Positions 1,482-42,421 of a stretch of 44,382 nucleotides of DNA are shown piece by piece. The stretch spans positions 1 through 44,382 of the IMG/VR virus record IMGVR_UViG_2740892015_000011. One strand, written 5' to 3'. Origin of the DNA: a virus. Taxonomy: Duplodnaviria > Heunggongvirae > Uroviricota > Caudoviricetes. Both the position numbers and the translations under genes were made by a program. How positions within the stretch are numbered: position 1 is the stretch's first letter; each line of letters starts with the position of its first letter. A model generated the notes under the pieces. That model did no database searches, was not told the origin of the DNA, and saw only the letters and a program-made list of their open reading frames with translations.

Positions 1482-2099
1482 TTAACGCCCTTTCGCGTAG
1501 AAGGCTCCACCTTCAAAGCCATAGTTACAATGAGCAACGAAACCTGTTTTCGTCCAGTTAGTTGCGCCCCACATATTCCCACCACCAAAACCGCCGTCAT
1601 ATACAATCACTACGTCTGGCTCCTGCGTAAAAGGAATGGTGAAAGTCACATTTGTAGATACCGCCGCGGCGTTATTCGGGAAATTAATTCTTCCCCACTG
1701 TTCAATTGAACCATCAGGCAATTTTTGCCAGCCAGATCCTGATGAATAAGCTGACATATCAGGTATCTGATTTTCCCCTGTTCCCACATTCCGTTTTGCC
1801 GCTTCTCCCAAACCAAGGTTTGTGAGAGCCGTAGAAATCGCCGCTGCTCCATCTGATTTGATATCGGCAAATGGGTTTGCACGGCTCAGTGTGAGTTTTT
1901 GAATGGCTTTTAAAACCTGAGTCATATCGTTAATGTCGAGCGCCAATCCTGCTGACTCTACGATATGCGCTAACTCTTCCTGCATGGCGTTAAACGCTGC
2001 TGCCCGCAGCCTCGTTGCGGCAATACCACCAGCAACACTTCCATCAGTATATTTGCCATCCTGCGTTGCAGTGGCTTCGACTTGCCCGATTCGGAGCAT
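1482..2099 (-). CDS. Short side tail fibre protein (constant N-terminus plus invertible C-terminal receptor-binding part)
   Basis: 205 aa, Gly/Ala-rich; contains the crossover site at about codon 95; position after the baseplate genes matches e14 StfP. Confidence 0.6.
   Translation of the reverse strand: MLRIGQVEATATQDGKYTDGSVAGGIAATRLRAAAFNAMQEELAHIVESAGLALDINDMTQVLKAIQKLTLSRANPFADIKSDGAAAISTALTNLGLGEAAKRNVGTGENQIPDMSAYSSGSGWQKLPDGSIEQWGRINFPNNAAAVSTNVTFTIPFTQEPDVVIVYDGGFGGGNMWGATNWTKTGFVAHCNYGFEGGAFYAKGR
1804..1829. repeat. Right recombination (crossover) site TTCTCCCAAACCAAGGTTTGTGAGAG
   Basis: 26-bp imperfect palindrome with an AAACC..GGTTT core resembling hix/gix/cix sites; lies inside the tail-fibre gene 1482..2099, about 95 codons from its start, where it encodes LTNLGLGE. 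Confidence 0.6.
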
Positions 2100-7728: not shown

Positions 7729-9657
7729 TCAGTAATTCATGGCCGTTGTTATTCTGCCATTATTTTCCGCATTATAGGTTTTTCGCTCACCCTTATCATT
7801 AACCATTGTGATTTCGAGCTTAAGTGGTTGTTCTGACATTGCCTCTTTAAGAGACTTAGCCAGATTGTCGCCGAGTACACTTTCATCACTTTTCTTACCC
7901 GTATCACTCAGAATGATGGATTCCCGATTTCTGTTCTGCGAGCCTGAGAGAATATCAGTTTCATCACTCGGGTTACTAAGAGTGCTGGAGTCACGATTTC
8001 CAGTTTGCGAACCTGAGATAATATCATATCGCTGTTGAGCCAGAACTTCCGGGCTACGTAAACCCTTCCACCGATCGTCAATGATGGCCGTCCGGACAGA
8101 ATCGCTCAGTTCATTTTCGGTATACGGCTGTGCTCCGCTTTCATGTTTAATCATTGCTGCCATCAGTGTTTTTAACACATCAGGATCGTGGAGATTAATA
8201 CGCTGCTGCGCTCCAAACCCAGTACTTTTTGATACGGAATCAATATATGCACGAGTATTATTCTCTGATTGCGGAGCATAGGTATGAATAATCCCATCCA
8301 GAGTATTATTCCCCCTGTCACCATACAACATCAGCTGTCTCGCCATTGCAGCTCTTCCGTCGGCATCATTCGCAAAGGTAGAAAATCCGCCATTTTTACC
8401 CGTTGCGTTTGCTGCAGCCCTCAAATTACCGGGATTATTATTTCTGAAGCCAATTGCGTTATTCCTTGTTTCCCCGTAAGGAACATTGCCGCGTGCAACG
8501 TTGGATTGTGGCTGGCTGATAGCGGATAAGTCATTCTGCAATTGAATCGCAGAATCGGTCGCGCGGTAATTCGCATCGTACCGCTTTCTTACAGCATCAG
8601 TCATGAAACCCGCGTCAACCTGCCCACGTTCACTGCGGGGTAAGCTGTTATAAAGTTCCTTATCGTTCTGAATGCGCCGTAGTTTCTCAGCATCATTGCT
8701 GTTGATAAAACCGAGAGCATGAGACAGCCCAGTAAAATCACCATTAGTGAACAGATCGGTAACACCTTCAAGGCCGTCTTTGACTGAACCATCCGAAAGA
8801 ATGGTCTTAAGTGCCTTGTTTTTTGAACGTTGCCACAGACCATCCCAGGATGCGCTGAGCTCATTCATAGTGCCGTTCACTTCACTCAATTGCTGATTTA
8901 GTGCCGGATCCACAGTCAGACCAAATTCATCCGATTTCGCCAGCAGCTTTTTCATGCGCTCACCGTCACGCATTAGCGCCAGCAATTCGGGCGTCAGCCC
9001 AAGTGCATCAGCGGCGGACTTCTGCTGTTCAGGTCGCAAGGTTGGAAAAATTTTTGCGATAGACTCCAGTGTTTTAAGGGTATTTACTGAACCATCGCTG
9101 TTTTTTTGGATTTGAGCACCAATTTGCGCCATCGCTGCCATAACCCCCTCGTTTTTACCACTGGCAGCCTCATTGAATGCTTTGAAAATACCTTCTATTG
9201 ATGCATTAGCGCTCTCGCTGTCTGCCCCAAGAATACGCATTGCCCCGGAAAGTCGGGTAAAATCGTCAACGCGCATTCCCGCATTTTTTGCCGAGACATC
9301 AAGATTATAGGCCTGACGGGATGCCTCCCGAAATCCATAAGCGACCTGTTTCAGTCCGTAGCCGGCAGCACCGGCTAACCCCAGCGCCCCCATCTTCCCC
9401 GTGAGCTCCCCCACCATTTTCAGTGGGGGAACCATGTCGCCAATAAACTGCACGTTATCCCGCGCGCTCTTCGACATATTCTCGAGGCGAGAAATAAAAC
9501 CGCTCAGTCCGTCGGCTGTTTCCTGACCGCCTAACTTGAGCCCTTCTTTAGTTTTATCTAGCTTCGGCTCCAGGTCACGGACAGCCTCATTAATGCGGTC
9601 TATAGCCTCGCTAACCTGGTCGCTGGCCACCAGCTCAAAATCAAAAGAATTACTCAT
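7729..9657 (-). CDS. Tail tape measure protein
   Basis: 642 aa, long helical Ala/Gly-rich protein after the chaperone frameshift region; C-terminal tandem peptide repeat (ISGSQTGNRDSS / LSGSQNRNRESI). Confidence 0.75.
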   Translation of the reverse strand: MSNSFDFELVASDQVSEAIDRINEAVRDLEPKLDKTKEGLKLGGQETADGLSGFISRLENMSKSARDNVQFIGDMVPPLKMVGELTGKMGALGLAGAAGYGLKQVAYGFREASRQAYNLDVSAKNAGMRVDDFTRLSGAMRILGADSESANASIEGIFKAFNEAASGKNEGVMAAMAQIGAQIQKNSDGSVNTLKTLESIAKIFPTLRPEQQKSAADALGLTPELLALMRDGERMKKLLAKSDEFGLTVDPALNQQLSEVNGTMNELSASWDGLWQRSKNKALKTILSDGSVKDGLEGVTDLFTNGDFTGLSHALGFINSNDAEKLRRIQNDKELYNSLPRSERGQVDAGFMTDAVRKRYDANYRATDSAIQLQNDLSAISQPQSNVARGNVPYGETRNNAIGFRNNNPGNLRAAANATGKNGGFSTFANDADGRAAMARQLMLYGDRGNNTLDGIIHTYAPQSENNTRAYIDSVSKSTGFGAQQRINLHDPDVLKTLMAAMIKHESGAQPYTENELSDSVRTAIIDDRWKGLRSPEVLAQQRYDIISGSQTGNRDSSTLSNPSDETDILSGSQNRNRESIILSDTGKKSDESVLGDNLAKSLKEAMSEQPLKLEITMVNDKGERKTYNAENNGRITTAMNY

Positions 9658-27045: not shown

Positions 27046-27759
27046 TCACATTTCTACCACTTTAACTTCCTCATACTCTTCGTACCGCGCCAGGCTTTCA
27101 CATAACGCCAGGCTGTCCATTTCCACGAAAGCTGCTTTAAATGCTGCCCAGTGAGCAGCGTATACCCTAAGCCAGGTTGAACGCTCCACGCTCACCATGC
27201 GGGCCAGTGCCGCCCCCGCATACTCCTGGTACGTATCGTTATTGCGTGATGCAGCAACTTCCTGGGCCGCGAGCCAAACCAGCCCCACTAATTTTTTTGT
27301 GACTCTGTCCTGGAGCTTCTTACTCCCCTGCTGATGCTGAAACTGTGCCCAAACGTACTGGCACATTAAGGTCTGGTACCGGAAAGACAGATCATATCCA
27401 TAGCAATACCGAACCCACGCCTGCAGATGCTCTCCAAGTCCATTCACCGAGCGGCGCCACGCAGAACTCGCAAACTCGGCATCCTTCATAGGGGGTAATG
27501 GGCGTCTACGGCTTCTTGTCTCCAGAACATAAAGCGGAGTGGCCAGCGTTTTTACAACCTTCGCTCCACAACATTCCCCACCCTCCATGACTATTTCTGG
27601 ATGGTGCCGGGGATACTTATTTTTATCTGCTGGTGGATGCTCACTGAACGCCTGCAGCTGTCCCTTCGTCGATCCTGAGAAATCGGCCAGCGCGCGGCGC
27701 AATTCAATACGGGTATATTCGAGTTCTTGTAAATTCATAATGCTCAGCGCTCCATACAA
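27046..27759 (-). CDS. Late-gene antitermination protein Q candidate
   Basis: 237 aa, last regulatory-region gene before the terminator and lysis genes; assignment is positional. Confidence 0.4.
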   Translation of the reverse strand: MYGALSIMNLQELEYTRIELRRALADFSGSTKGQLQAFSEHPPADKNKYPRHHPEIVMEGGECCGAKVVKTLATPLYVLETRSRRRPLPPMKDAEFASSAWRRSVNGLGEHLQAWVRYCYGYDLSFRYQTLMCQYVWAQFQHQQGSKKLQDRVTKKLVGLVWLAAQEVAASRNNDTYQEYAGAALARMVSVERSTWLRVYAAHWAAFKAAFVEMDSLALCESLARYEEYEEVKVVEM

Positions 27760-34059: not shown

Positions 34060-34692
34060 TTACTTCTCCATACAAGATTTGTCTGCCACGACGCCCGGAG
34101 CTGCACACTCGCGGGCGTCACCTTTTTCCGGCGCACAAAACACACGGAAAAGCAGCGTCAAATGTTCCTGCCACTTAGCCATCACCTGATAGCTGTTCTC
34201 TTCGATCTGGGCGCGTTCCTGAGCATCAATAACGCCGTCAGCGGTAGCTTTACGAACGTATTGCGAATGCCTGCCGATCCACTCAACTGACTCCATGAGA
34301 CGCTGGTTGATATCGCCGTTCTCAATATCTTCAACATCAGCCAATGGCACAAACACACCGTTCGAGTGACGTGCAATAGCATTCGCTATGTGGTTTGAAC
34401 CACCAGCACGCTGAAGCACCATCGCCCAACCGAGCGGGAAGATCTGATCACCATCGGTACGCAGCCGGTTAAACAGCGCGTTCTCGGTCACACCCAACCA
34501 CTCAGCAGCTTCGGAATACCCGCCAGGAAGCTCGGTGATCGTTTTTTTGATTGCGGCCACCAGCCAGGCTGGCTGCTTATCTACTTTCCATTCAGGTTCT
34601 ATACCCACGGCTAGGTCCTCCCTTCTGTGGTTATTTCTGATCGTTAGGCGCTGTATTCTTGCCATAACGTTCTGGGTTGAATTCCAGTTCAC
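34060..34692 (-). CDS. Regulatory protein downstream of cro (YdaT-like / CII-position)
   Basis: 210 aa; positional assignment; true start may be internal because the ORF overlaps the cro-like gene. Confidence 0.3.
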   Translation of the reverse strand: MNWNSTQNVMARIQRLTIRNNHRREDLAVGIEPEWKVDKQPAWLVAAIKKTITELPGGYSEAAEWLGVTENALFNRLRTDGDQIFPLGWAMVLQRAGGSNHIANAIARHSNGVFVPLADVEDIENGDINQRLMESVEWIGRHSQYVRKATADGVIDAQERAQIEENSYQVMAKWQEHLTLLFRVFCAPEKGDARECAAPGVVADKSCMEK

Positions 34693-34846
34693 CAGCAGTT
34701 CGATACGCAGCTTCAGCAGCTCGTCCTTTAGGGATTAAGCGTCCGGGGCGATTACGCCACTGGTAAACGGCCTCACTGGTGATGCCAAAAAATTCGGCAA
34801 CTTTCTCAGTGCTGCCGAAATGTTGTTCAATCTCGTCGGTTGTCAT
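34631..34846 (-). CDS. cro: Cro-like HTH repressor
   Basis: 71 aa, HTH EKVAEFFGITSEAVYQWRNR; AGGAGG RBS 4 nt before the ATG; divergent from cI. Confidence 0.6.
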   Translation of the reverse strand: MTTDEIEQHFGSTEKVAEFFGITSEAVYQWRNRPGRLIPKGRAAEAAYRTAGELEFNPERYGKNTAPNDQK

Positions 34847-34945: not shown

Positions 34946-35572
34946 ATGGAAACGGTTGGTCAGCGCATTAAAGCCCTACGCAGGGTTACAAAAACCTCTC
35001 AAAAAGAACTGGGTAAGTTCTGCGGAGTGAGTGACGTAGCAGTGGGTTATTGGGAAAAGGATGTGAATATCCCAAACGGAGAATCGCTGGTTAAGCTGGC
35101 TAAATTCTTCAATACATCAATAGATTACATTCTTTACGGCACTGAATTTGAAGGGACCCTCATAACTAAAATGAGGCGTGTGCCCGTGATTTCTTGGGTT
35201 CAAGCTGGGCAGTTTACGGAATGTAAGGCCGCTGATTTATTCAGTGATGTCGATAAATGGGTTGAAACCTCACTACGCATTGGGGATAGCTCGTTCGCTT
35301 TAGAGGTCAAAGGGGATTCAATGACCAATCCAAATGGCCTCCCAACAATTCCTGAAGGGGCAACCGTTATTGTCGATCCAGATGCCGAACCCCTTCATGG
35401 CAAGATTGTTGTTGCGCGTATTGATGGCACTAACGAAGCGACTGTTAAAAAACTGGTCATTGATGGCCCACAAAAATTTTTAGTCCCACTAAATCCTCGC
35501 TACCCCAACATCCCGATCAATGGTAACTGCCTCATTATTGGAGTAGTTAAAGGCGTTCAGTACGAACTCTAA
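34946..35572 (+). CDS. cI: CI-type prophage repressor (HTH-XRE plus S24 LexA-like peptidase domain)
   Basis: N-terminal HTH (IKALRRVTKTSQKELGKFCGVSDVAVGYWE) and C-terminal S24 motifs (KGDSM ... VKK). Confidence 0.85.
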   Translation: METVGQRIKALRRVTKTSQKELGKFCGVSDVAVGYWEKDVNIPNGESLVKLAKFFNTSIDYILYGTEFEGTLITKMRRVPVISWVQAGQFTECKAADLFSDVDKWVETSLRIGDSSFALEVKGDSMTNPNGLPTIPEGATVIVDPDAEPLHGKIVVARIDGTNEATVKKLVIDGPQKFLVPLNPRYPNIPINGNCLIIGVVKGVQYEL

Positions 35573-35626
35573 TCCCCTTCCGCTCTTCCTCTAAGCATCA
35601 AGCTAAGTTTAGTTTGATGTTTTCGC

Positions 35627-35655
35627 TTGACCAATAAACTAAGTTAAGTTAGATT
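35627..35655 (+). promoter_or_regulatory. PL-like early promoter (-35 TTGACC, 17-bp spacer, -10 TAGATT) with operator repeats
   Basis: Flanked by the same CTAAG / TTGACCAA motifs found at the cro promoter. Confidence 0.45.
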
Positions 35656-35786
35656 TTTTTCTGTCGACACCAAACCACCGCGCCTGATGTGGTTAAAAGC
35701 AGGCCAAAGCAATATGAAGTGATCCCTGTTCTGGCTGTTCACTTTCCCCTGAGGGTGACAGCCAGCTTTTTAAGGGCACAACGTGA

Positions 35787-35867
35787 AAGCGCACTCCATC
35801 AACTATCGGTTGTGGATGACAGGTAAGTAAACAGGCGGAGTGCGCTTCCAGTTGTGATGAATTGCAG
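35787..35867 (+). ncRNA. Structured leader element, copy 1 (candidate cis-acting or small RNA)
   Basis: 5' box CACAACGTGAAAGCGCACTCC and 3' box GGCGGAGTGCGCTTCCAGTTGTG are complementary over about 12 bp and enclose about 45 nt; strand inferred from promoter context. Confidence 0.35.
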
Positions 35868-36119
35868 CCCTTTGAGGCAACCAGAAGATAAGCACCTGGC
35901 GTCACAGCACTATTGAACATGGCGAAAGCCGAAAGACTTGAAGGCGGTTTTCTCAGGTTGCGCGCTAAAGAATAGCGGGGAGAACCTGGGGCGGAGAGCA
36001 AACCCCGCGATGCAGGACTTGAAATACCTCACAGACCAATAAGCCGTCTGGCAGCGTAACTGCCCTTTACATCAGCCCCGGCGAGGTGGCGCCGACGGAC
36101 CGGGGCTGATGAATCGCAA

Positions 36120-36196
36120 CACAACATGAAAGCGCATTCCTCTTTTCACTGATGGGGATCGGTTTGTTACCTGGCGGAGTGCGCTTCCAGTTGTGG
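36120..36196 (+). ncRNA. Structured leader element, copy 2
   Basis: Same boxes as copy 1 (3' box identical over 23 nt); one stem position changes from C-G to U-G, keeping the pairing. Confidence 0.35.
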
Positions 36197-36354
36197 TAAT
36201 GCGGCTCTGCGCACGTGACGAGGCCAATAAGTTTATTTCAACTTTGAAATGAATACGTTTCTTAAGGTGTAGCGTCGTCGGTTCTGGCCGGTCCGGCAGG
36301 TGGAGGCACCACCGCCACAACAACATCATTGCTGTGTGTAGTCTTTGCCCATCA

Positions 36355-36376
36355 CATCGGTGGGCACCTTTTTTAC
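36355..36376 (+). terminator. Rho-independent terminator in the early-left leader
   Basis: TGCCCA-TCACATCGG-TGGGCA followed by CCTTTTTT, about 160 bp upstream of the first early-left gene. Confidence 0.45.
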
Positions 36377-36537
36377 ACAAGAGACAAGGGCATCACCGGG
36401 CGACGGGCTCATTCCCCAATCCACCCGGGCGCTATGGAAATGGACCTCCTACCCATAGCCGAAGCGCAGGTGCCCTTTTCTGTTGTGTATGGAGAAGTTC
36501 CACTGGCGGTGGCAGCCGCCTCACAGAGGGTTAAACC

Positions 36538-36909
36538 ATGAGTAATGACCGCATGACCGTAGTGCCCGATTTCCTGGGCGAACTGGATGCCGGCGTGTTC
36601 ATGAACAAGATCGCGGCAGCTTTAAACACTACCGCGCTTGGCGTTCTGAACAACGGTACCAAAGGCAAAGTAGTCCTCACCTTTGATATTGAGCGTATGG
36701 GTAACTCCGTCGAAGAGAAGCGCGTCAAGATCAAGCACAAGCTGAACTACGTCACCCCCACCCCGCGCGGTAAAGCCTCCGAAGAAGACACCACCGAAAC
36801 ACCAATGTGGGTTAACAAAGGCGGCAAGCTGACCATCCTGCAGGAAGATCAGGGGCAGCTGTTCGGGATCAACGGCGGCGTTGACGGAAAGCTTAAAGCG
36901 GCACAGTGA
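36538..36909 (+). CDS. Early-left protein of unknown function
   Basis: 123 aa, first gene of the early-left operon; may be YfdP-like (from memory). Confidence 0.35.
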   Translation: MSNDRMTVVPDFLGELDAGVFMNKIAAALNTTALGVLNNGTKGKVVLTFDIERMGNSVEEKRVKIKHKLNYVTPTPRGKASEEDTTETPMWVNKGGKLTILQEDQGQLFGINGGVDGKLKAAQ

Positions 36910-38653: not shown

Positions 38654-39153
38654 CCACCAACAAATACGCGACTCTGCGCGGCACAATCGCCAGAGCTAAA
38701 CGCAACGACTGCCAGAAGGTAGTGATGCGTGTGACGTTAGTTGAAGAACTCCTCCTTCAACTGTCAAACGCTGAGAAGCAGGTAGCTGCGCTAGCTGCGG
38801 AAGTTCAGGCGGTGCGATGGGCTGCCGGGCAGGTTTATTCAGCTGGGTATAATCATGGGCACCTTAATACTGCTGATGAACTCCCCTATGCATCTGATGA
38901 AGAACTTCTTCAGAGAGGAAATGAAGTCCTTATCGAGTTCACCGACCCAGACCATTCAGGCAATGTGACCGACGCTGTACTGGATGAAGTGCGTGCCCAC
39001 GCTATCAAATCTGCCCTCAACGATTGTTCGGAGTGCCTCGATAGGGACTGCATCATGGATTCGAACGGCATCAGTTATGAAGATGCTGCACTCCGTGAAG
39101 CGGGTGCCATGGCGCTGCACGATGCGTTACTTCGCCAGGAGCGTGCCGTATGA
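38650..39153 (+). CDS. Hypothetical early protein
   Basis: 167 aa; contains a Cys cluster (CSECLDRDC). Confidence 0.3.
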   Translation: MTTNKYATLRGTIARAKRNDCQKVVMRVTLVEELLLQLSNAEKQVAALAAEVQAVRWAAGQVYSAGYNHGHLNTADELPYASDEELLQRGNEVLIEFTDPDHSGNVTDAVLDEVRAHAIKSALNDCSECLDRDCIMDSNGISYEDAALREAGAMALHDALLRQERAV

Positions 39154-39371
39154 GTTCAGACATCATCGATCAGGCAAACGAGCTGGTAGAGCACCGCCTG
39201 CAGCTGGCCATACAAAAACACCGTATTGATCAGAATGCAGTCTCTGCAGAGCACTGTTCTGAATGCGAAGAGGACATTCCTAAGGCGCGCCGGGTTGCAA
39301 TGCCTGGCTGCAAAACATGCGCCAGTTGCCAGGAAGTTTTAGAGCTCATGATAAAGCAGCGTAAGGGGTAA
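39150..39371 (+). CDS. TraR/DksA-family C4 zinc-finger protein
   Basis: 73 aa with CSECEE...(17)...CKTCASC four-Cys pattern. Confidence 0.5.
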   Translation: MSSDIIDQANELVEHRLQLAIQKHRIDQNAVSAEHCSECEEDIPKARRVAMPGCKTCASCQEVLELMIKQRKG

Positions 39372-41027: not shown

Positions 41028-41237
41028 ATGGCAAAGCTAATGAAAGCGAGTCTCTGGAGTAAGCGCGAATTTACCAAAGACTCCATTCCTGACAACCGTA
41101 CAATTAAACGTTGGGTCGAAAACGGATTACTCATGGGAAGGATTGTAGATGGTTCAGTTTTTGTCTATGAAACCGAAAAATGGGGAGTTGACTCAATTGT
41201 TAATCAGGCGGTACGTCAGTTAATAATTGAGGGTTGA
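41028..41237 (+). CDS. xis: Excisionase-like protein
   Basis: Start at internal MAKLMKAS preceded by GGAGAAGG; ...DNRTIKRWVENG... resembles lambda Xis (...SLETVRRWVRE...); immediately upstream of int with a 4-nt overlap. Confidence 0.5.
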   Translation: MAKLMKASLWSKREFTKDSIPDNRTIKRWVENGLLMGRIVDGSVFVYETEKWGVDSIVNQAVRQLIIEG

Positions 41238-42421
41238 CCATGGCAGCAAGGCCACGAAAAAAAGAATACCGCCACCTTCCTGATTATCTTTTTTTTGATA
41301 AAGATCGTGGCGTGTATAAGTTCACGCTTATAACTGGGAAAAAGAAAACTCTCGGTTCGGATCGAGTAATGGCTATAGCCATCGCCCGAGAATATAACCT
41401 GAGGATGCGCCCTGAAAATACACCATCGATAGATTCATTAATTCGGGAATCGGGAGGGCTGAATGGTGAAGCCCAACCGTTTTCTGAACATGTTGATCGC
41501 ATTATGGAGAGAGCAATCAAAGATGAGCAGCCGTCTAAAAGCACACTTGACGATTGGAATAATGATGCCATCAGGGTTAAAGAATTTTTTAATAACATAC
41601 CCGCATGCGATATTGAGCTTGAGCACGTAAATGCCTACATACGAAATTACCATTCTGAATCGTCGGCCAATGTTCAGAACCGAAAAGTTAGCTTCCTGAA
41701 AAAGCTATTCTCTTATGCTGTTGATGAATCGCTAATGATGGATAACCCTGCAACACGGAAAAAAATGCGGCGTGTCGATAAAAAGGTCCGCCGGCGACTT
41801 ACTTTGGAACAGTTCCTGGCCATACATGCAGCTGCTGAACCTTGGCTGAAGACTGCAATGGACCTTGCCATACAAACTACGCAAGCGCGCCTGGAAGTTT
41901 CCCGGATCCGGTACTCGATCAAGGAACCTCAAGAAGGGGTTTGCGGCTGTGTATGGTTCGATCAGGAGGAGGCTGGCATATTCGGAACGCTTTACATTCA
42001 TCGGCAAAAAGTGCAGCACAAAGAGGCTTCACACGTCGCTATTCCGATCGGCAGGGCCCTGAAAGAGATCATCGACAACAGCAGAGACAATGTGGCCAGT
42101 CCTTATGTTGTTCACCGGCTTCTGGAAAAGAGAAGCAATCCGATAAGCAAGGAAGTTAACCACCCAACACAGGTGGCCCCTGACTATTTGAGCAGGGCAT
42201 TTTCAGAGCTGCGGGACCGGATAGGTGTAGCGGCAGAATTACCTATCAAAGAAAGGCCAACTTTCCACGAGATTAGAGCGCTGGCGGCTCATATTTTCGA
42301 AAGACAAGGTATCGATCCGCAGGCAAGGATGGCCCATAGTGATGCAAAATCGACAAAAATTTATACCCAGAATCATGTTGAATGGGTTGAAGTACCGCAT
42401 GCAGAAATAAAAATGGCATAG
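41234..42421 (+). CDS. int: Tyrosine integrase
   Basis: 395 aa; C-terminal catalytic region with ...HEIRALAAHIFERQGIDPQARMAHSDAKSTKIYTQNH...; next to xis and the att core. Confidence 0.85.
   Translation: MTMAARPRKKEYRHLPDYLFFDKDRGVYKFTLITGKKKTLGSDRVMAIAIAREYNLRMRPENTPSIDSLIRESGGLNGEAQPFSEHVDRIMERAIKDEQPSKSTLDDWNNDAIRVKEFFNNIPACDIELEHVNAYIRNYHSESSANVQNRKVSFLKKLFSYAVDESLMMDNPATRKKMRRVDKKVRRRLTLEQFLAIHAAAEPWLKTAMDLAIQTTQARLEVSRIRYSIKEPQEGVCGCVWFDQEEAGIFGTLYIHRQKVQHKEASHVAIPIGRALKEIIDNSRDNVASPYVVHRLLEKRSNPISKEVNHPTQVAPDYLSRAFSELRDRIGVAAELPIKERPTFHEIRALAAHIFERQGIDPQARMAHSDAKSTKIYTQNHVEWVEVPHAEIKMA

Follow-up and report, generated by a model that had tools for sequence, protein, structure and literature searches.

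How does a lambdoid prophage without an N gene express its early-left operon when a long untranslated stretch separates the promoter from the first gene, and what does that stretch encode instead? The question is raised by positions 35573..36537 of a tailed-phage sequence (IMG/VR record IMGVR_UViG_2740892015_000011), the whole 44,382-nt stretch of which is called the window here. A first-pass annotation had read the interval as a structured, untranslated early-left leader, and this reading holds: positions 35662..36537 are the untranslated, highly structured leader of the early-left promoter (PL) in a lambdoid prophage that lacks N and resembles SfV, ST64B and LLS in type, and the segment 36060..36500 folds more stably than its shuffled versions (z = -4.86). 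In order, PL is followed by a hairpin that we call hairpin A, a terminator-like hairpin (T1), a first copy of a long ‘clamp’ hairpin, a conserved spacer, a perfect 12-bp hairpin, the second clamp copy, a small RNA (sRNA) module, a third, larger clamp hairpin (H3) and the first gene. Compared by sequence with its relatives, the leader is a mosaic of RNA cassettes common to SfV, ST64B, mEp390 and LLS and, in part, to the leader of the ban operon of P1 and P7. Its length is variable (628 nt in LLS, 965 nt in the window).

The flanks of the leader are those of a lambdoid immunity region. A cro-like gene (34631..34846, minus strand; ORF list and PHROG search) diverges from a gene for a cI-type, LexA/S24-like repressor (34946..35572, plus strand; phrog_4, transcriptional repressor, E = 2.9e-55). 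Directly after the latter come two operator-like repeats (35600..35623 and 35636..35659; repeat family D2, inverted repeat I4), and between them lies the PL-like promoter that had already been proposed, TTGACC-17-TAGATT at 35627..35655 (-35 box at 35627..35632, -10 box at 35650..35655). In a promoter scan this was the sole plus-strand promoter-like site between cI and the first gene. At the far end, a small GC hairpin (36505..36520, plus strand) and the Shine-Dalgarno sequence AGAGGG (36525..36530) precede a YfdP-like gene (36538..36909, plus strand; phrog_204, E = 1e-41), and the same arrangement of hairpin and first gene is found in LLS, ST64B and SfV. The early-left genes behind the leader span roughly 5 kb, with integrase last.

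No protein could be assigned to the interval itself, in agreement with the original judgement that it holds no credible ORF. Searched against PHROG, the leader ORFs gave only one marginal match (E = 0.0095), to a family of unknown function, and the PGAP annotation under the full-length matches to the leader in three E. coli genomes calls nothing there. The further claim that there is no N-like gene also stands, since none of the 11 left-operon ORFs and none of the five leader ORFs matched an N-like or antiterminator PHROG. The arginine-rich, N-like protein that is the first PL gene in a lambda-type N/nut system is absent, and the YfdP-like gene occupies its place.

The RNA elements of the leader begin close to the promoter. 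Hairpin A (35673..35704, plus strand; stem AACCAC/GUGGUU) is conserved in 54 distinct variants. Its loop GCCUG (35682..35686) is complementary to CAGGC (35700..35704), so that a pseudoknot is possible; variation among the 54 variants is too small for this to be tested by covariation. T1 follows (35731..35771, plus strand; CUGGCUGU...ACAGCCAG, then CUUUUU; sequence and fold), a motif that precedes the clamp element in 14 related regions. A simple terminator scan does not list T1, probably because its loop and inner stem fall outside the scan rules. The first-pass annotation overlooked T1, as well as H3 (36374..36489) and the RprA-like sRNA.

The two copies of an element of about 80 nt with complementary boxes, noticed from the start, are real, and their coordinates are now 35777..35856 and 36120..36195 (both plus strand). 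Each was identified as a repeat and by its fold, and with R1, a covariance model of the clamp hairpin built in the present analysis, which scores copy 1 at 89.4 bits on the plus strand and 38.4 on the minus strand, and copy 2 at 82.5 and 33.7 bits. Of each arm motif, CACAACRTGAAAGCGCAYTCC and GGAGTGCGCTTCCAGTTGTG, the 44-kb window contains exactly two occurrences (chance expectation about 0.00-0.01), and neither the motifs nor R1 reveal a further copy in it on either strand; both copies lie in the left leader. Each copy folds into one long hairpin (-32.6 kcal/mol; z = -4.2 and -4.3 against shuffles), and the consensus structure consists of one 18-bp lower stem and a small apical stem. The lower stem is built of 6 + 2 + 10-11 bp, interrupted by a single bulge and a single mismatch, an arrangement that is alike in secondary members of the family. 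The reported stem difference that preserves pairing is likewise genuine: a C at 35794 and a T at 36137 oppose an invariant G, and among relatives the same pair is C-G in 13, U-G in 10 and U-A in one. Conservation extends into the interior of the 80-nt element, where two types can be told apart, and the apical stem varies in a compensatory way (CUGAU/AUCGG, CCGGU/AUCGG and CGGUC/GAUCG). Copy 1 is 94% identical to mEp390 27370..27449, and copy 2 is 84-86% identical to copies in Klebsiella phages. Separately, a hammerhead reading of CUGAUG...GAAA in copy 2 was rejected by eye, as the motif is unconserved elsewhere and the helix topology is wrong.

The segments around the two copies differ in how well they hold up. 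The conserved spacer after copy 1 (35857..35909, plus strand; AUGAAUUGCAGCCCUUUGAGGCAACCAGAAGAUAAGCACCUGG...) is matched at 80-90% in BLAST by the leader of the ban operon in P1 and P7, and by several phages of Salmonella and Klebsiella. The perfect 12-bp-stem hairpin at 36070..36111 (plus strand; inverted repeat I9) that had been pointed out earlier is stable relative to shuffles (z = -3.55) and recurs just upstream of the element in the loci of other phages, whereas a GC hairpin proposed near 35990..36027 folds no better than shuffled sequence (z = -0.54). H3 (36374..36489, plus strand; ACACAAGAGACAAGGGCA...UGCCCUUUUCUGUUGUGU; inverted repeat I2; -56.4 kcal/mol) begins within the U-tract of the sRNA terminator. 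Its 5' half matches SfV, SfII, SfIV, mEp460, Stx2c phages and ST64B, and its counterpart in LLS scores 16.7 bits with R1.

By arm sequence and predicted fold, both copies belong to a large superfamily of long clamp hairpins (CACAAC...GUUGUG). The hallmark of the superfamily is an ACAAC/GUUGU closure together with a second conserved box, AAG(A/C/G)GC / GC(U/G/C)CUU, and the pairs between the boxes co-vary. At least 119 viral contigs of IMG/VR contain the exact 3' arm, as do 19 contigs of species-representative genomes, of which those that are named all come from Enterobacteriaceae; among 5426 complete E. coli genomes, just 28 carry the element, with no familiar model strain among the 28. R1 finds two to three family members per leader, which have the lower-stem motif of their folds in common, and favours the sense strand (82-100 bits, against 30-48 bits antisense). 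No Rfam family matched the clamp hairpin, and the whole window gave nothing at gathering thresholds. None of the phage records inspected labels the hairpins as an RNA feature, and no description of them was found in the searchable literature.

The first-pass annotation had named folding and covariance analysis across related prophages as a check on the element, and the outcome favours a conserved RNA structure: among 31 non-redundant hairpins, arms paired with their own partners reach -25.7 kcal/mol and with swapped partners -17.5 +/- 1.07 kcal/mol, and none of 10000 partner permutations equalled the own-arm pairing. This permutation test took the place of a count of pairs in an arms-only alignment because the subfamilies differ in bulge register. 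A strand test that compares G-U pairs with A-C mismatches in the stems (108 against 68) was set aside, since a single conserved mismatch accounts for most of the A-C count.

Clamp hairpins keep a fixed sense orientation, upstream of a seed and a terminator. Among 158 distinct contexts, 97 have the seed described below downstream of the element and on its strand, and none has it upstream; for hairpin A the numbers are 56 upstream and none downstream. In phages of the mEp390 class, 23 nt separate the element from seed and terminator. Some relatives have tRNA genes next to the hairpins or partly within them: in one leader (L031), a tRNA-Arg(UCU) begins 3 nt inside the 3' arm of the element, and this tRNA was called in 10 of the 12 leaders of its class, and in P7 a tRNA-Thr ends 2 nt ahead of a hairpin while a tRNA-Ser sits between hairpins. 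BLAST matches stop exactly at the borders of the element, and the cassettes that come after the same element vary between phages.

In the window, the cargo downstream of copy 2 is a predicted sRNA. Prophage-encoded small RNAs had been raised as an alternative to a cis-acting device, and the alignments bear this alternative out: about 36196..36376 is, judged by homology, an sRNA module with an STnc100-like 5' domain (36196..36329, plus strand; Rfam alignments), a 16-nt RprA-type 3' seed UGCUGUGUGUAGUCUU (36330..36345; five-way alignment and BLAST) and an intrinsic terminator (36346..36376; terminator scan) with an 8-bp stem followed by CCUUUUUU. The terminator had been placed at 36355..36376; it exists, but it starts earlier, with a stem at 36346..36366 and a U-tract that runs to 36376.

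The likeness to RprA, an Hfq-dependent core sRNA of Enterobacteriaceae, is greatest at the 3' end, where its last 50 nt are homologous to the module. A BLAST search with 36296..36380 matched annotated rprA in 5424 of 5426 E. coli genomes, with 82% identity over 50 nt (36328..36377). In a five-way alignment of K-12 rprA, the window, LLS, mEp390 and ST64B, the seed is invariant at 15 of 16 positions. A 26-nt stretch (AUUGCUGUGUGUAGUCUUUGCCCAUC) is identical in K-12 rprA and the window, and is followed by a U-tailed terminator stem that also resembles the RprA terminator. Farther upstream, a hairpin at 36231..36254 resembles RprA stem-loop 1, and the Rfam model of RprA (RF00034) aligns to 36227..36375 with a 55-nt insertion at 44.1 bits (E = 7e-4), short of its gathering score of 70 bits, and a gathering-mode scan of the window returns no match. 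The segment upstream of the seed, which we take to correspond to the rpoS-pairing segment of RprA, diverges in the five-way alignment. The module also differs from RprA in lying in a phage PL leader and having no promoter of its own: the scan gave no promoter-like site between PL and the module, and thus no counterpart to the RcsB-dependent promoter of RprA. As no promoter except PL was found for it, expression of the sRNA in lysogens is doubtful. No target of the seed was found within the prophage, and our literature search returned nothing relevant on RprA-like phage sRNAs.

The 5' domain has a different affinity. Homologous domains score 35.1 bits (ST64B) and 43.0 bits (P7) with the Rfam STnc100 model (RF02076; threshold 47), over model positions 31-147 only, and the window itself has no STnc100 match at E <= 10. 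Its resemblance, GUUGUGG...GGUGGAGGCACCACC...CCACAAC at 36190..36321, was seen by eye against the STnc100 model alignment and is unscored, as are the GGAGGCAC hairpin and the closing helix GUUGUGG/CCACAAC, also recognized by eye. STnc100 and PasD RNAs (Zhu, Shabalina and Storz, bioRxiv 10.64898/2026.05.13.724894) are likewise prophage-borne, terminator-ended sRNAs with an exchangeable seed, and their 5' domain is closed by a GUGGUG/CACCAC-type helix with a CCGGGAGGCACCCGG-type hairpin inside, the counterpart of which in the window is GGUGGAGGCACCACC, with compensatory changes. Known members lie near Q, in the late region, whereas the module in the window is in the early-left leader and carries the RprA seed. 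Across phages the core of the seed is retained in front of 44 distinct terminator tails, whose stems appear to fall into at least five unrelated types; other phages bear the seed on unrelated terminators. On these alignments the seed is what is kept while scaffold and terminator are swapped, a pattern that clearly points to selection on a terminator-ended sRNA. The phage RNAs AgvB, AsxR and StxS are similar in being short, in coming from leader or moron positions and in acting on host sRNA networks (StxS of Stx phages is a by-product of a terminated phage leader transcript), but their sources are the PR' late leader or convergent moron sites, and the AgvB model scores only 14.9 bits on the window.

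Taken as a whole, we propose that the leader is an expression platform for non-coding RNA cassettes, that is, an sRNA with an RprA seed and clamp stems that process or insulate it, a reading to which we assign a probability of roughly 45%. When the repressor is lifted, transcripts from PL would yield an sRNA that ends at its own terminator. By analogy with RprA, this sRNA would probably mature to a short piece of seed and terminator, which probably binds the RNA chaperone Hfq and may act on host mRNAs through the RprA 3' seed, the targets of which are described in the literature. The clamp hairpins, with their nearly continuous helix of about 20 bp, are most likely RNase III-type processing or folding-insulator stems that bracket RNA cargo; they would separate and release that cargo (the sRNA here, tRNA-Arg elsewhere) from read-through transcripts, which would go on to express the early-left genes. 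Cleavage is suggested by helix length: the lower stem provides the about two helical turns of nearly continuous dsRNA that characterize RNase III hairpins. Processing hairpins of this kind are known from the T7 early sites, the lambda N leader and the stems of rRNA operons, and the clamp hairpins resemble them in length (about 20 bp), in their small irregularities and in being repeated along an early polycistronic transcript between functional units, tRNAs included.

What a processing role explains less well is sequence. A purely structural function leaves the conservation of both arms unexplained: the end box ACAAC/GUUGU and the core box AAGAGCA/UGCUCUU (the same as the core of boxA in rrn operons and in the nut sites of lambda) are both kept, and the conserved interior of the element suggests more than a cleavage site. 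The clamp hairpins differ in this from RNase III sites, which to our knowledge need neither specific sequence boxes nor conserved interiors.

Conservation of the arms beyond structure is one reason to consider that the clamp hairpins, or hairpin A, work as antiterminators in cis, comparable in function to the put RNAs of phage HK022 and unrelated to them in origin. By modifying RNA polymerase, the nascent RNA would then allow T1, the terminator of the sRNA and those farther downstream to be read through, and so stand in for N. The absence of an N-like gene, the two terminator-like hairpins ahead of roughly 5 kb of early-left genes and the strict position of the element upstream of seed and terminator would all fit, and hairpin A is the most promoter-proximal conserved element, as is putL in HK022. 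The putL and putR sites of HK022 and the putL-like site of HK639 are promoter-proximal structured RNAs of N-less lambdoid phages that lie upstream of a terminator, and put acts in cis via the beta' zinc-binding domain of RNA polymerase (PMC9378689). Read as membership in the put family, the comparison first suggested nevertheless fails. Searches of both copies and the whole leader against HK022 with blastn gave chance matches only, R1 found nothing in HK022 or HK639, and, on direct reading, the put sites of these two phages resemble each other (with a common core GAACGGCGCG...AAACCAUGCGUCGG) and not the window. Where put consists of two adjacent stem-loops totalling about 70 nt, with one copy per early operon (after PL and after PR), each clamp copy is one long hairpin, and both are in the left operon with none in the right; moreover, the clamp hairpins are linked to sRNA and tRNA cargo. 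Placement relative to terminators points both ways: copy 2 lies 150 nt upstream of the terminator at 36346..36376, and in relatives the element always precedes seed and terminator, but copy 1 is downstream of T1, and the P7 hairpins are downstream of the first leader terminator. Efficient read-through would oppose the making of a terminator-ended sRNA. We regard antitermination by the clamp hairpins or hairpin A as unlikely.

A second option is that the 80-nt element forms a stable small RNA in its own right, or provides the downstream sRNA with its 5' domain, and serves as a decoy or sponge or as a CCA minihelix. In the mEp390 class, element, seed and terminator would make one sRNA of about 170 nt, and the conserved interior with its compensatory apical variants also counts in favour of this option. 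The 5' end of the element bears CACAACA, the target consensus of GcvB R1, which AgvB, a phage anti-sRNA, also uses; this CACAAC, however, pairs with GUUGUG in the clamp and is therefore not free for GcvB. The 3' arm reads GCGCUU-CCA-GUUGUG with the CCA mostly kept, which recalls the RNase P-matured c4 RNA of P1, but the CCA is missing from most other members of the superfamily, the element has no Rfam C4 or AgvB-type match at E <= 10, and no promoter is evident directly upstream of it. We find this option improbable as well. The antisense RNA of P1 c4 and P4 CI (RF01695) was rejected as a candidate for the region, with no C4 match at E <= 10 in 35400..36700.

The 3' arms could instead be boxA-like sites, with a UGCUCUU core followed by a G/U-rich GUUGUGG, that load NusB and S10 (with SuhB) and, as in rRNA operons, would shield an untranslated, cargo-bearing leader from Rho termination. 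Most superfamily members have GUGCUCUU(U/A)CCGUUGUG in the 3' arm, which we take to match boxA in its core as found in rrn operons and the nut sites of lambda, and the leaders are untranslated and can exceed 2 kb (P7 ban leader). The arms are near-palindromic, however, so that the motif appears on either strand and its presence is weak evidence. In every member the boxA-like stretch is fully paired with the 5' arm, whereas the boxA sites known to us are single-stranded (in lambda-type N/nut systems beside a boxB hairpin), and both window copies depart from the core with UGCGCUU. The leader is also neither C-rich nor G-poor, as a region of Rho loading would be (13% of windows with a C/G ratio >=1.3, against 14% in the downstream genes), and a literature search on boxA in prophage leaders found nothing relevant. 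We consider Nus loading at these arms very unlikely.

Equally small is the chance that the arms act at the DNA level, as linkers for homologous cassette exchange or as a protein-binding palindrome, with the hairpin incidental. The breaks of BLAST matches at the element borders, with differing cassettes beyond, the conserved arm sequences and the near-palindromic end and core boxes are what such a linker would show; the fixed orientation relative to transcription, the strict order of hairpin A, element and seed, and the preference of R1 for the sense strand argue for RNA, as do the C/U variation opposite an invariant G, which preserves RNA pairing, and the covariation of the arms between boxes, which a simple linker does not require. 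Finally, the possibility that a small protein is encoded in the interval after all, such as a divergent analogue of N, can practically be discounted: mechanical ORFs of 45-102 aa are present on both strands and two phage records carry automatic ‘hypothetical protein’ calls at the leader, but in addition to the PHROG and PGAP results given above, the cassette-sized insertions and replacements of relatives ignore any reading frame and conservation tracks hairpin arms rather than codons.

The clamp hairpins are thus apparently an undescribed and widespread RNA family, present in several genera of Enterobacteriaceae as well as in the P1/P7 ban leader, in a region that annotation today leaves blank or fills with spurious proteins. 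They offer a handle on how lambdoid phages that lack N manage to express an operon when an untranslated leader of nearly 0.9 kb, with terminators in it, comes first. If, as seems improbable, they were to form (possibly with hairpin A) a second, unrelated RNA-only system for processive antitermination or Nus loading, transcription in the N-less phages of the SfV/ST64B/LLS group, as well as in the ban operon of P1/P7, would pass the leader terminators by RNA alone, and the same leaders would deliver a host-sRNA mimic with the RprA seed, along with tRNAs, as the very first products of the phage. Whereas AgvB and AsxR act against host sRNAs, the phage in the present case carries the seed of a host sRNA itself, placed so as to be transcribed first from PL, and its RNA would be a mimic. 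Should the sRNA be active, it would let the phage force part of the RprA response upon its host at induction or infection, and selection would then act on the RprA 3' seed as a module in host and phage alike.

The window carries an immunity region of the lambdoid type, with a cro-like gene on the - strand (34631..34846) and a cI-type repressor on the + strand (34946..35572; PHROG phrog_4, E = 2.9e-55). Directly after cI, within two operator-like repeats, lies a promoter-like site (TTGACC-17-TAGATT, 35627..35655), and the next credible gene, which is YfdP-like, starts only at 36538. The interval 35662..36537 is therefore the leader of the early-left (PL) operon, transcribed on the + strand. Beyond the YfdP-like gene come a DUF2303/YfdQ-like gene, an HD-type nucleotidase, an exonuclease and the integrase (41234..42421). 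The operon also contains a 73 aa DksA/TraR-like zinc-finger ORF (39150..39371, + strand; phrog_54, E = 1.2e-24); proteins of the DksA/TraR type bind in the secondary channel of RNA polymerase.

This leader is non-coding and assembled from conserved RNA modules, and nearly every detail of the first-pass annotation proved correct. That annotation saw no credible ORF in the leader; PHROG returned a single marginal match (E = 0.0095), whose family has no known function, and PGAP leaves the interval blank in three full-length E. coli copies. It also saw no N-like gene, and a PHROG search of the 11 left-operon ORFs gave no match to an antiterminator family. The distal half of the leader (36060..36500) folds with z = -4.86, and the proposed 12-bp hairpin (36070..36111) has perfect pairing and a significant fold (z = -3.55). 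The predicted terminator exists, although its stem lies at 36346..36366 with a U-tract to 36376, rather than at 36355..36376. The ‘GC hairpin near 35990’ is not confirmed, folding no better than shuffled sequence (z = -0.54).

The repeated element of about 80 nt, here called the clamp hairpin, is present in the window at 35777..35856 (copy 1) and 36120..36195 (copy 2), and its arm motifs are found nowhere else in the 44 kb (chance expectation ~0.01 or less). The boxes described as mutually complementary close each copy into one long hairpin (-32.6 kcal/mol; z = -4.2 and -4.3), and the single stem difference, C or U opposite G, is as reported. Among 31 non-redundant hairpins, pairs between the two conserved boxes co-vary: arms pair with their own partners at -25.7 kcal/mol versus -17.5 +/- 1.07 when partners are swapped, and none of 10000 permutations reached the own-partner value. 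The 3'-end of copy 2, GUUGUGG (36190..36196), has two possible partners, its own 5' CACAAC and the CCACAAC (36315..36321) that closes an STnc100-like domain (STnc100 is an Rfam prophage sRNA family); the two helices are mutually exclusive.

Both copies belong to a larger superfamily with a fixed orientation and order. The element is represented by 84 distinct sequences (23 clusters at 90% identity), and its consensus structure is a single 18-bp lower stem around a variable interior of ~45 nt. According to R1, the covariance model built on the element, related hairpins number two or three in most leaders, with scores of 60-100 bits for the main element and 17-56 bits for secondary members. Secondary members fold with the common lower stem, (A)CACAAC-N-GG/UG-N-AAG(A/C/G)GC on the 5' side and GC(U/G/C)CUU-N-CC/CA-GUUGUG on the 3' side, around interiors of ~30 to 100 nt; a third hairpin in the window (36374..36489) is a member. 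At least 119 IMG/VR contigs contain the exact 3' arm, as do 19 species-representative genome contigs, the latter from Kosakonia, Enterobacter, Kluyvera, Raoultella, Citrobacter and Buttiauxella as well as from metagenome bins under other, probably mis-assigned, taxon labels. In E. coli the element is found in just 28 of 5426 genomes. No Rfam family matches it, even at E <= 10, and in the phage records inspected it bears no RNA-feature label, the annotations under matches being automatic protein calls only; the superfamily appears undescribed.

A common order is kept in SfV, ST64B, LLS, mEp390 and the window: hairpin A (35673..35704 in the window), a clamp hairpin, a cargo slot, a 16-nt seed with a terminator, a second clamp hairpin beginning in the U-tract, a short GC hairpin and the first gene. 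Across 158 distinct element contexts, the seed follows the element on the same strand in 97 and never precedes it; hairpin A precedes the element in 56 and never follows it. The cargo slot may hold nothing, an STnc100-like domain or tRNA-Arg(UCU). This tRNA, called in 10 of the 12 leaders of one class (L031 and nine others), lies downstream of the clamp hairpin and upstream of the seed with its terminator (e.g. L031 7909..8250). In L031 it spans 7987..8063 and the element ends at 7989; RNase P cleavage would fall inside the clamp, because the first 3 nt of the tRNA are the last 3 nt of the 3' arm. In three E. coli genomes a PGAP tRNA-Arg annotation overlaps the element match. The ban-operon leader of P7 (AF503408, 1600..3260) extends this design to a greater length, and in it four to five CACAAC/GUUGUG hairpins alternate with tRNA-Asn, tRNA-Thr (ending 2 nt before a clamp hairpin) and tRNA-Ser(UGA), the last absent from the record's annotation, followed by an STnc100-like domain. 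The P7/P1 ban leader starts with an RprA-terminator-like hairpin (GCCCAUCUUCGGGUGGGCGUUUUUU, ~1805..1835 in the P7 record). Following copy 1, a 50-nt segment (35857..35909) with two small hairpins, UUGCAGCC...GGCAA and CCAGAAGAUAAGCACCUGG, is 80-90% conserved in P1, P7 and several Salmonella, Klebsiella and Escherichia phages; its P1 counterpart is annotated within the putative lipoprotein gene plp.

One leader module is a predicted sRNA gene carrying the 3' seed of the host sRNA RprA (36330..36345), which supports the alternative suggestion of prophage-encoded small RNAs. A permissive Rfam scan placed RprA over 36227..36375 with 44.1 bits (E = 7e-4), short of the threshold of 70, and with a 3' portion near-identical to the family consensus. 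BLAST of 36296..36380 gave a match of 82% identity over 50 nt to annotated rprA in 5424 of 5426 complete E. coli genomes. Aligning the window, LLS, mEp390 and ST64B with K-12 rprA leaves 15 of the 16 positions of UGCUGUGUG(U/A)AGUCUU invariant, despite wholly different terminator hairpins in mEp390 and ST64B. Taken over all retrieved loci, 44 distinct terminator tails, of apparently at least five unrelated stem types, follow the seed core CUGUGUG(U/G/A)AGUC. Exchangeable scaffolds around a conserved seed are the signature of a base-pairing sRNA. The part of RprA that pairs with rpoS is located just upstream of the seed and is not kept in the aligned phage copies. RNase E cleavage of RprA, an RNA of three stem-loops, leaves a shorter 3' form (PMC6202311).

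STnc100 matches the domain that precedes the seed in ST64B (35.1 bits) and P7 (43.0 bits), in both below its threshold of 47. The window itself gave no STnc100 match in the permissive scan; read by eye, its domain appears to retain both the helix that closes it and the GGAGGCAC hairpin, with compensatory changes. STnc100 has recently been tied to PasD sRNAs (bioRxiv 10.64898/2026.05.13.724894). PL being the only promoter seen upstream, the predicted sRNA most likely arises as an early product of PL. It combines known kinds, namely an STnc100/PasD-like scaffold, the seed of RprA and termination within a leader as in the phage sRNA StxS; the searchable literature yielded no account of an RprA-seed sRNA carried by a phage. 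The 26-nt stretch GGCAGGTGGAGGCACCACCGCCACAA (36296..36321) has a 100% match on an E. coli plasmid record, and the BLAST search of 36296..36380 gave 99 plasmid places in all, which suggests that plasmids, perhaps P1-like, commonly carry the STnc100-like hairpin.

As to function, the clamp hairpins may serve as RNase III-type processing and folding-insulator stems that would release or delimit cargo from read-through transcripts, much like the processing stems of T7 early RNA and rRNA operons. We favour this putative role because the hairpins form about two turns of near-continuous helix and bracket cargo units, although it leaves the sequence conservation of both arms and the interior unexplained. 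A Nus-factor or antitermination role is kept alive by the 3'-arm core UGCUCUU, which is identical to the boxA core found in rrn operons and in lambda nut sites; however, this motif is fully paired in every member and degenerate in the window (UGCGCUU). Membership of the put family, the comparison drawn in the first-pass annotation, is not supported: HK022 and HK639 putL share nothing with the leader, R1 matches nothing in HK022 or HK639 and, within the window, nothing beyond the two left-operon copies, the right-operon strand included, and copy 1 lies downstream of a terminator-like hairpin (35731..35771). The put RNAs of HK022 are two-stem elements of ~70 nt, one after PL and one after PR, both acting via the beta' zinc-binding domain (PMC9378689), and by direct reading HK022 putL and the annotated HK639 putL-like RNA have GAACGGCGCG...AAACCAUGCGUCGG in common.

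Hairpin A is the conserved element that comes first after PL, and it may itself be the true nut- or put-like site. Its loop GCCUG is complementary to CAGGC 5 nt past the stem, so that, judged from sequence, an H-type pseudoknot is possible. Many IMG/VR relatives (e.g. L140, L148, L175) have the start codon of a divergent ORF ~45 nt upstream of hairpin A instead of PL. In such phages, then, a separate promoter may drive the unit made up of hairpin A, element, seed and terminator.

Altogether, the two copies belong to a co-varying hairpin superfamily linked to sRNA and tRNA cargo. The role of the repeated element is one that we infer; the RNA system itself is real, widespread and unannotated.
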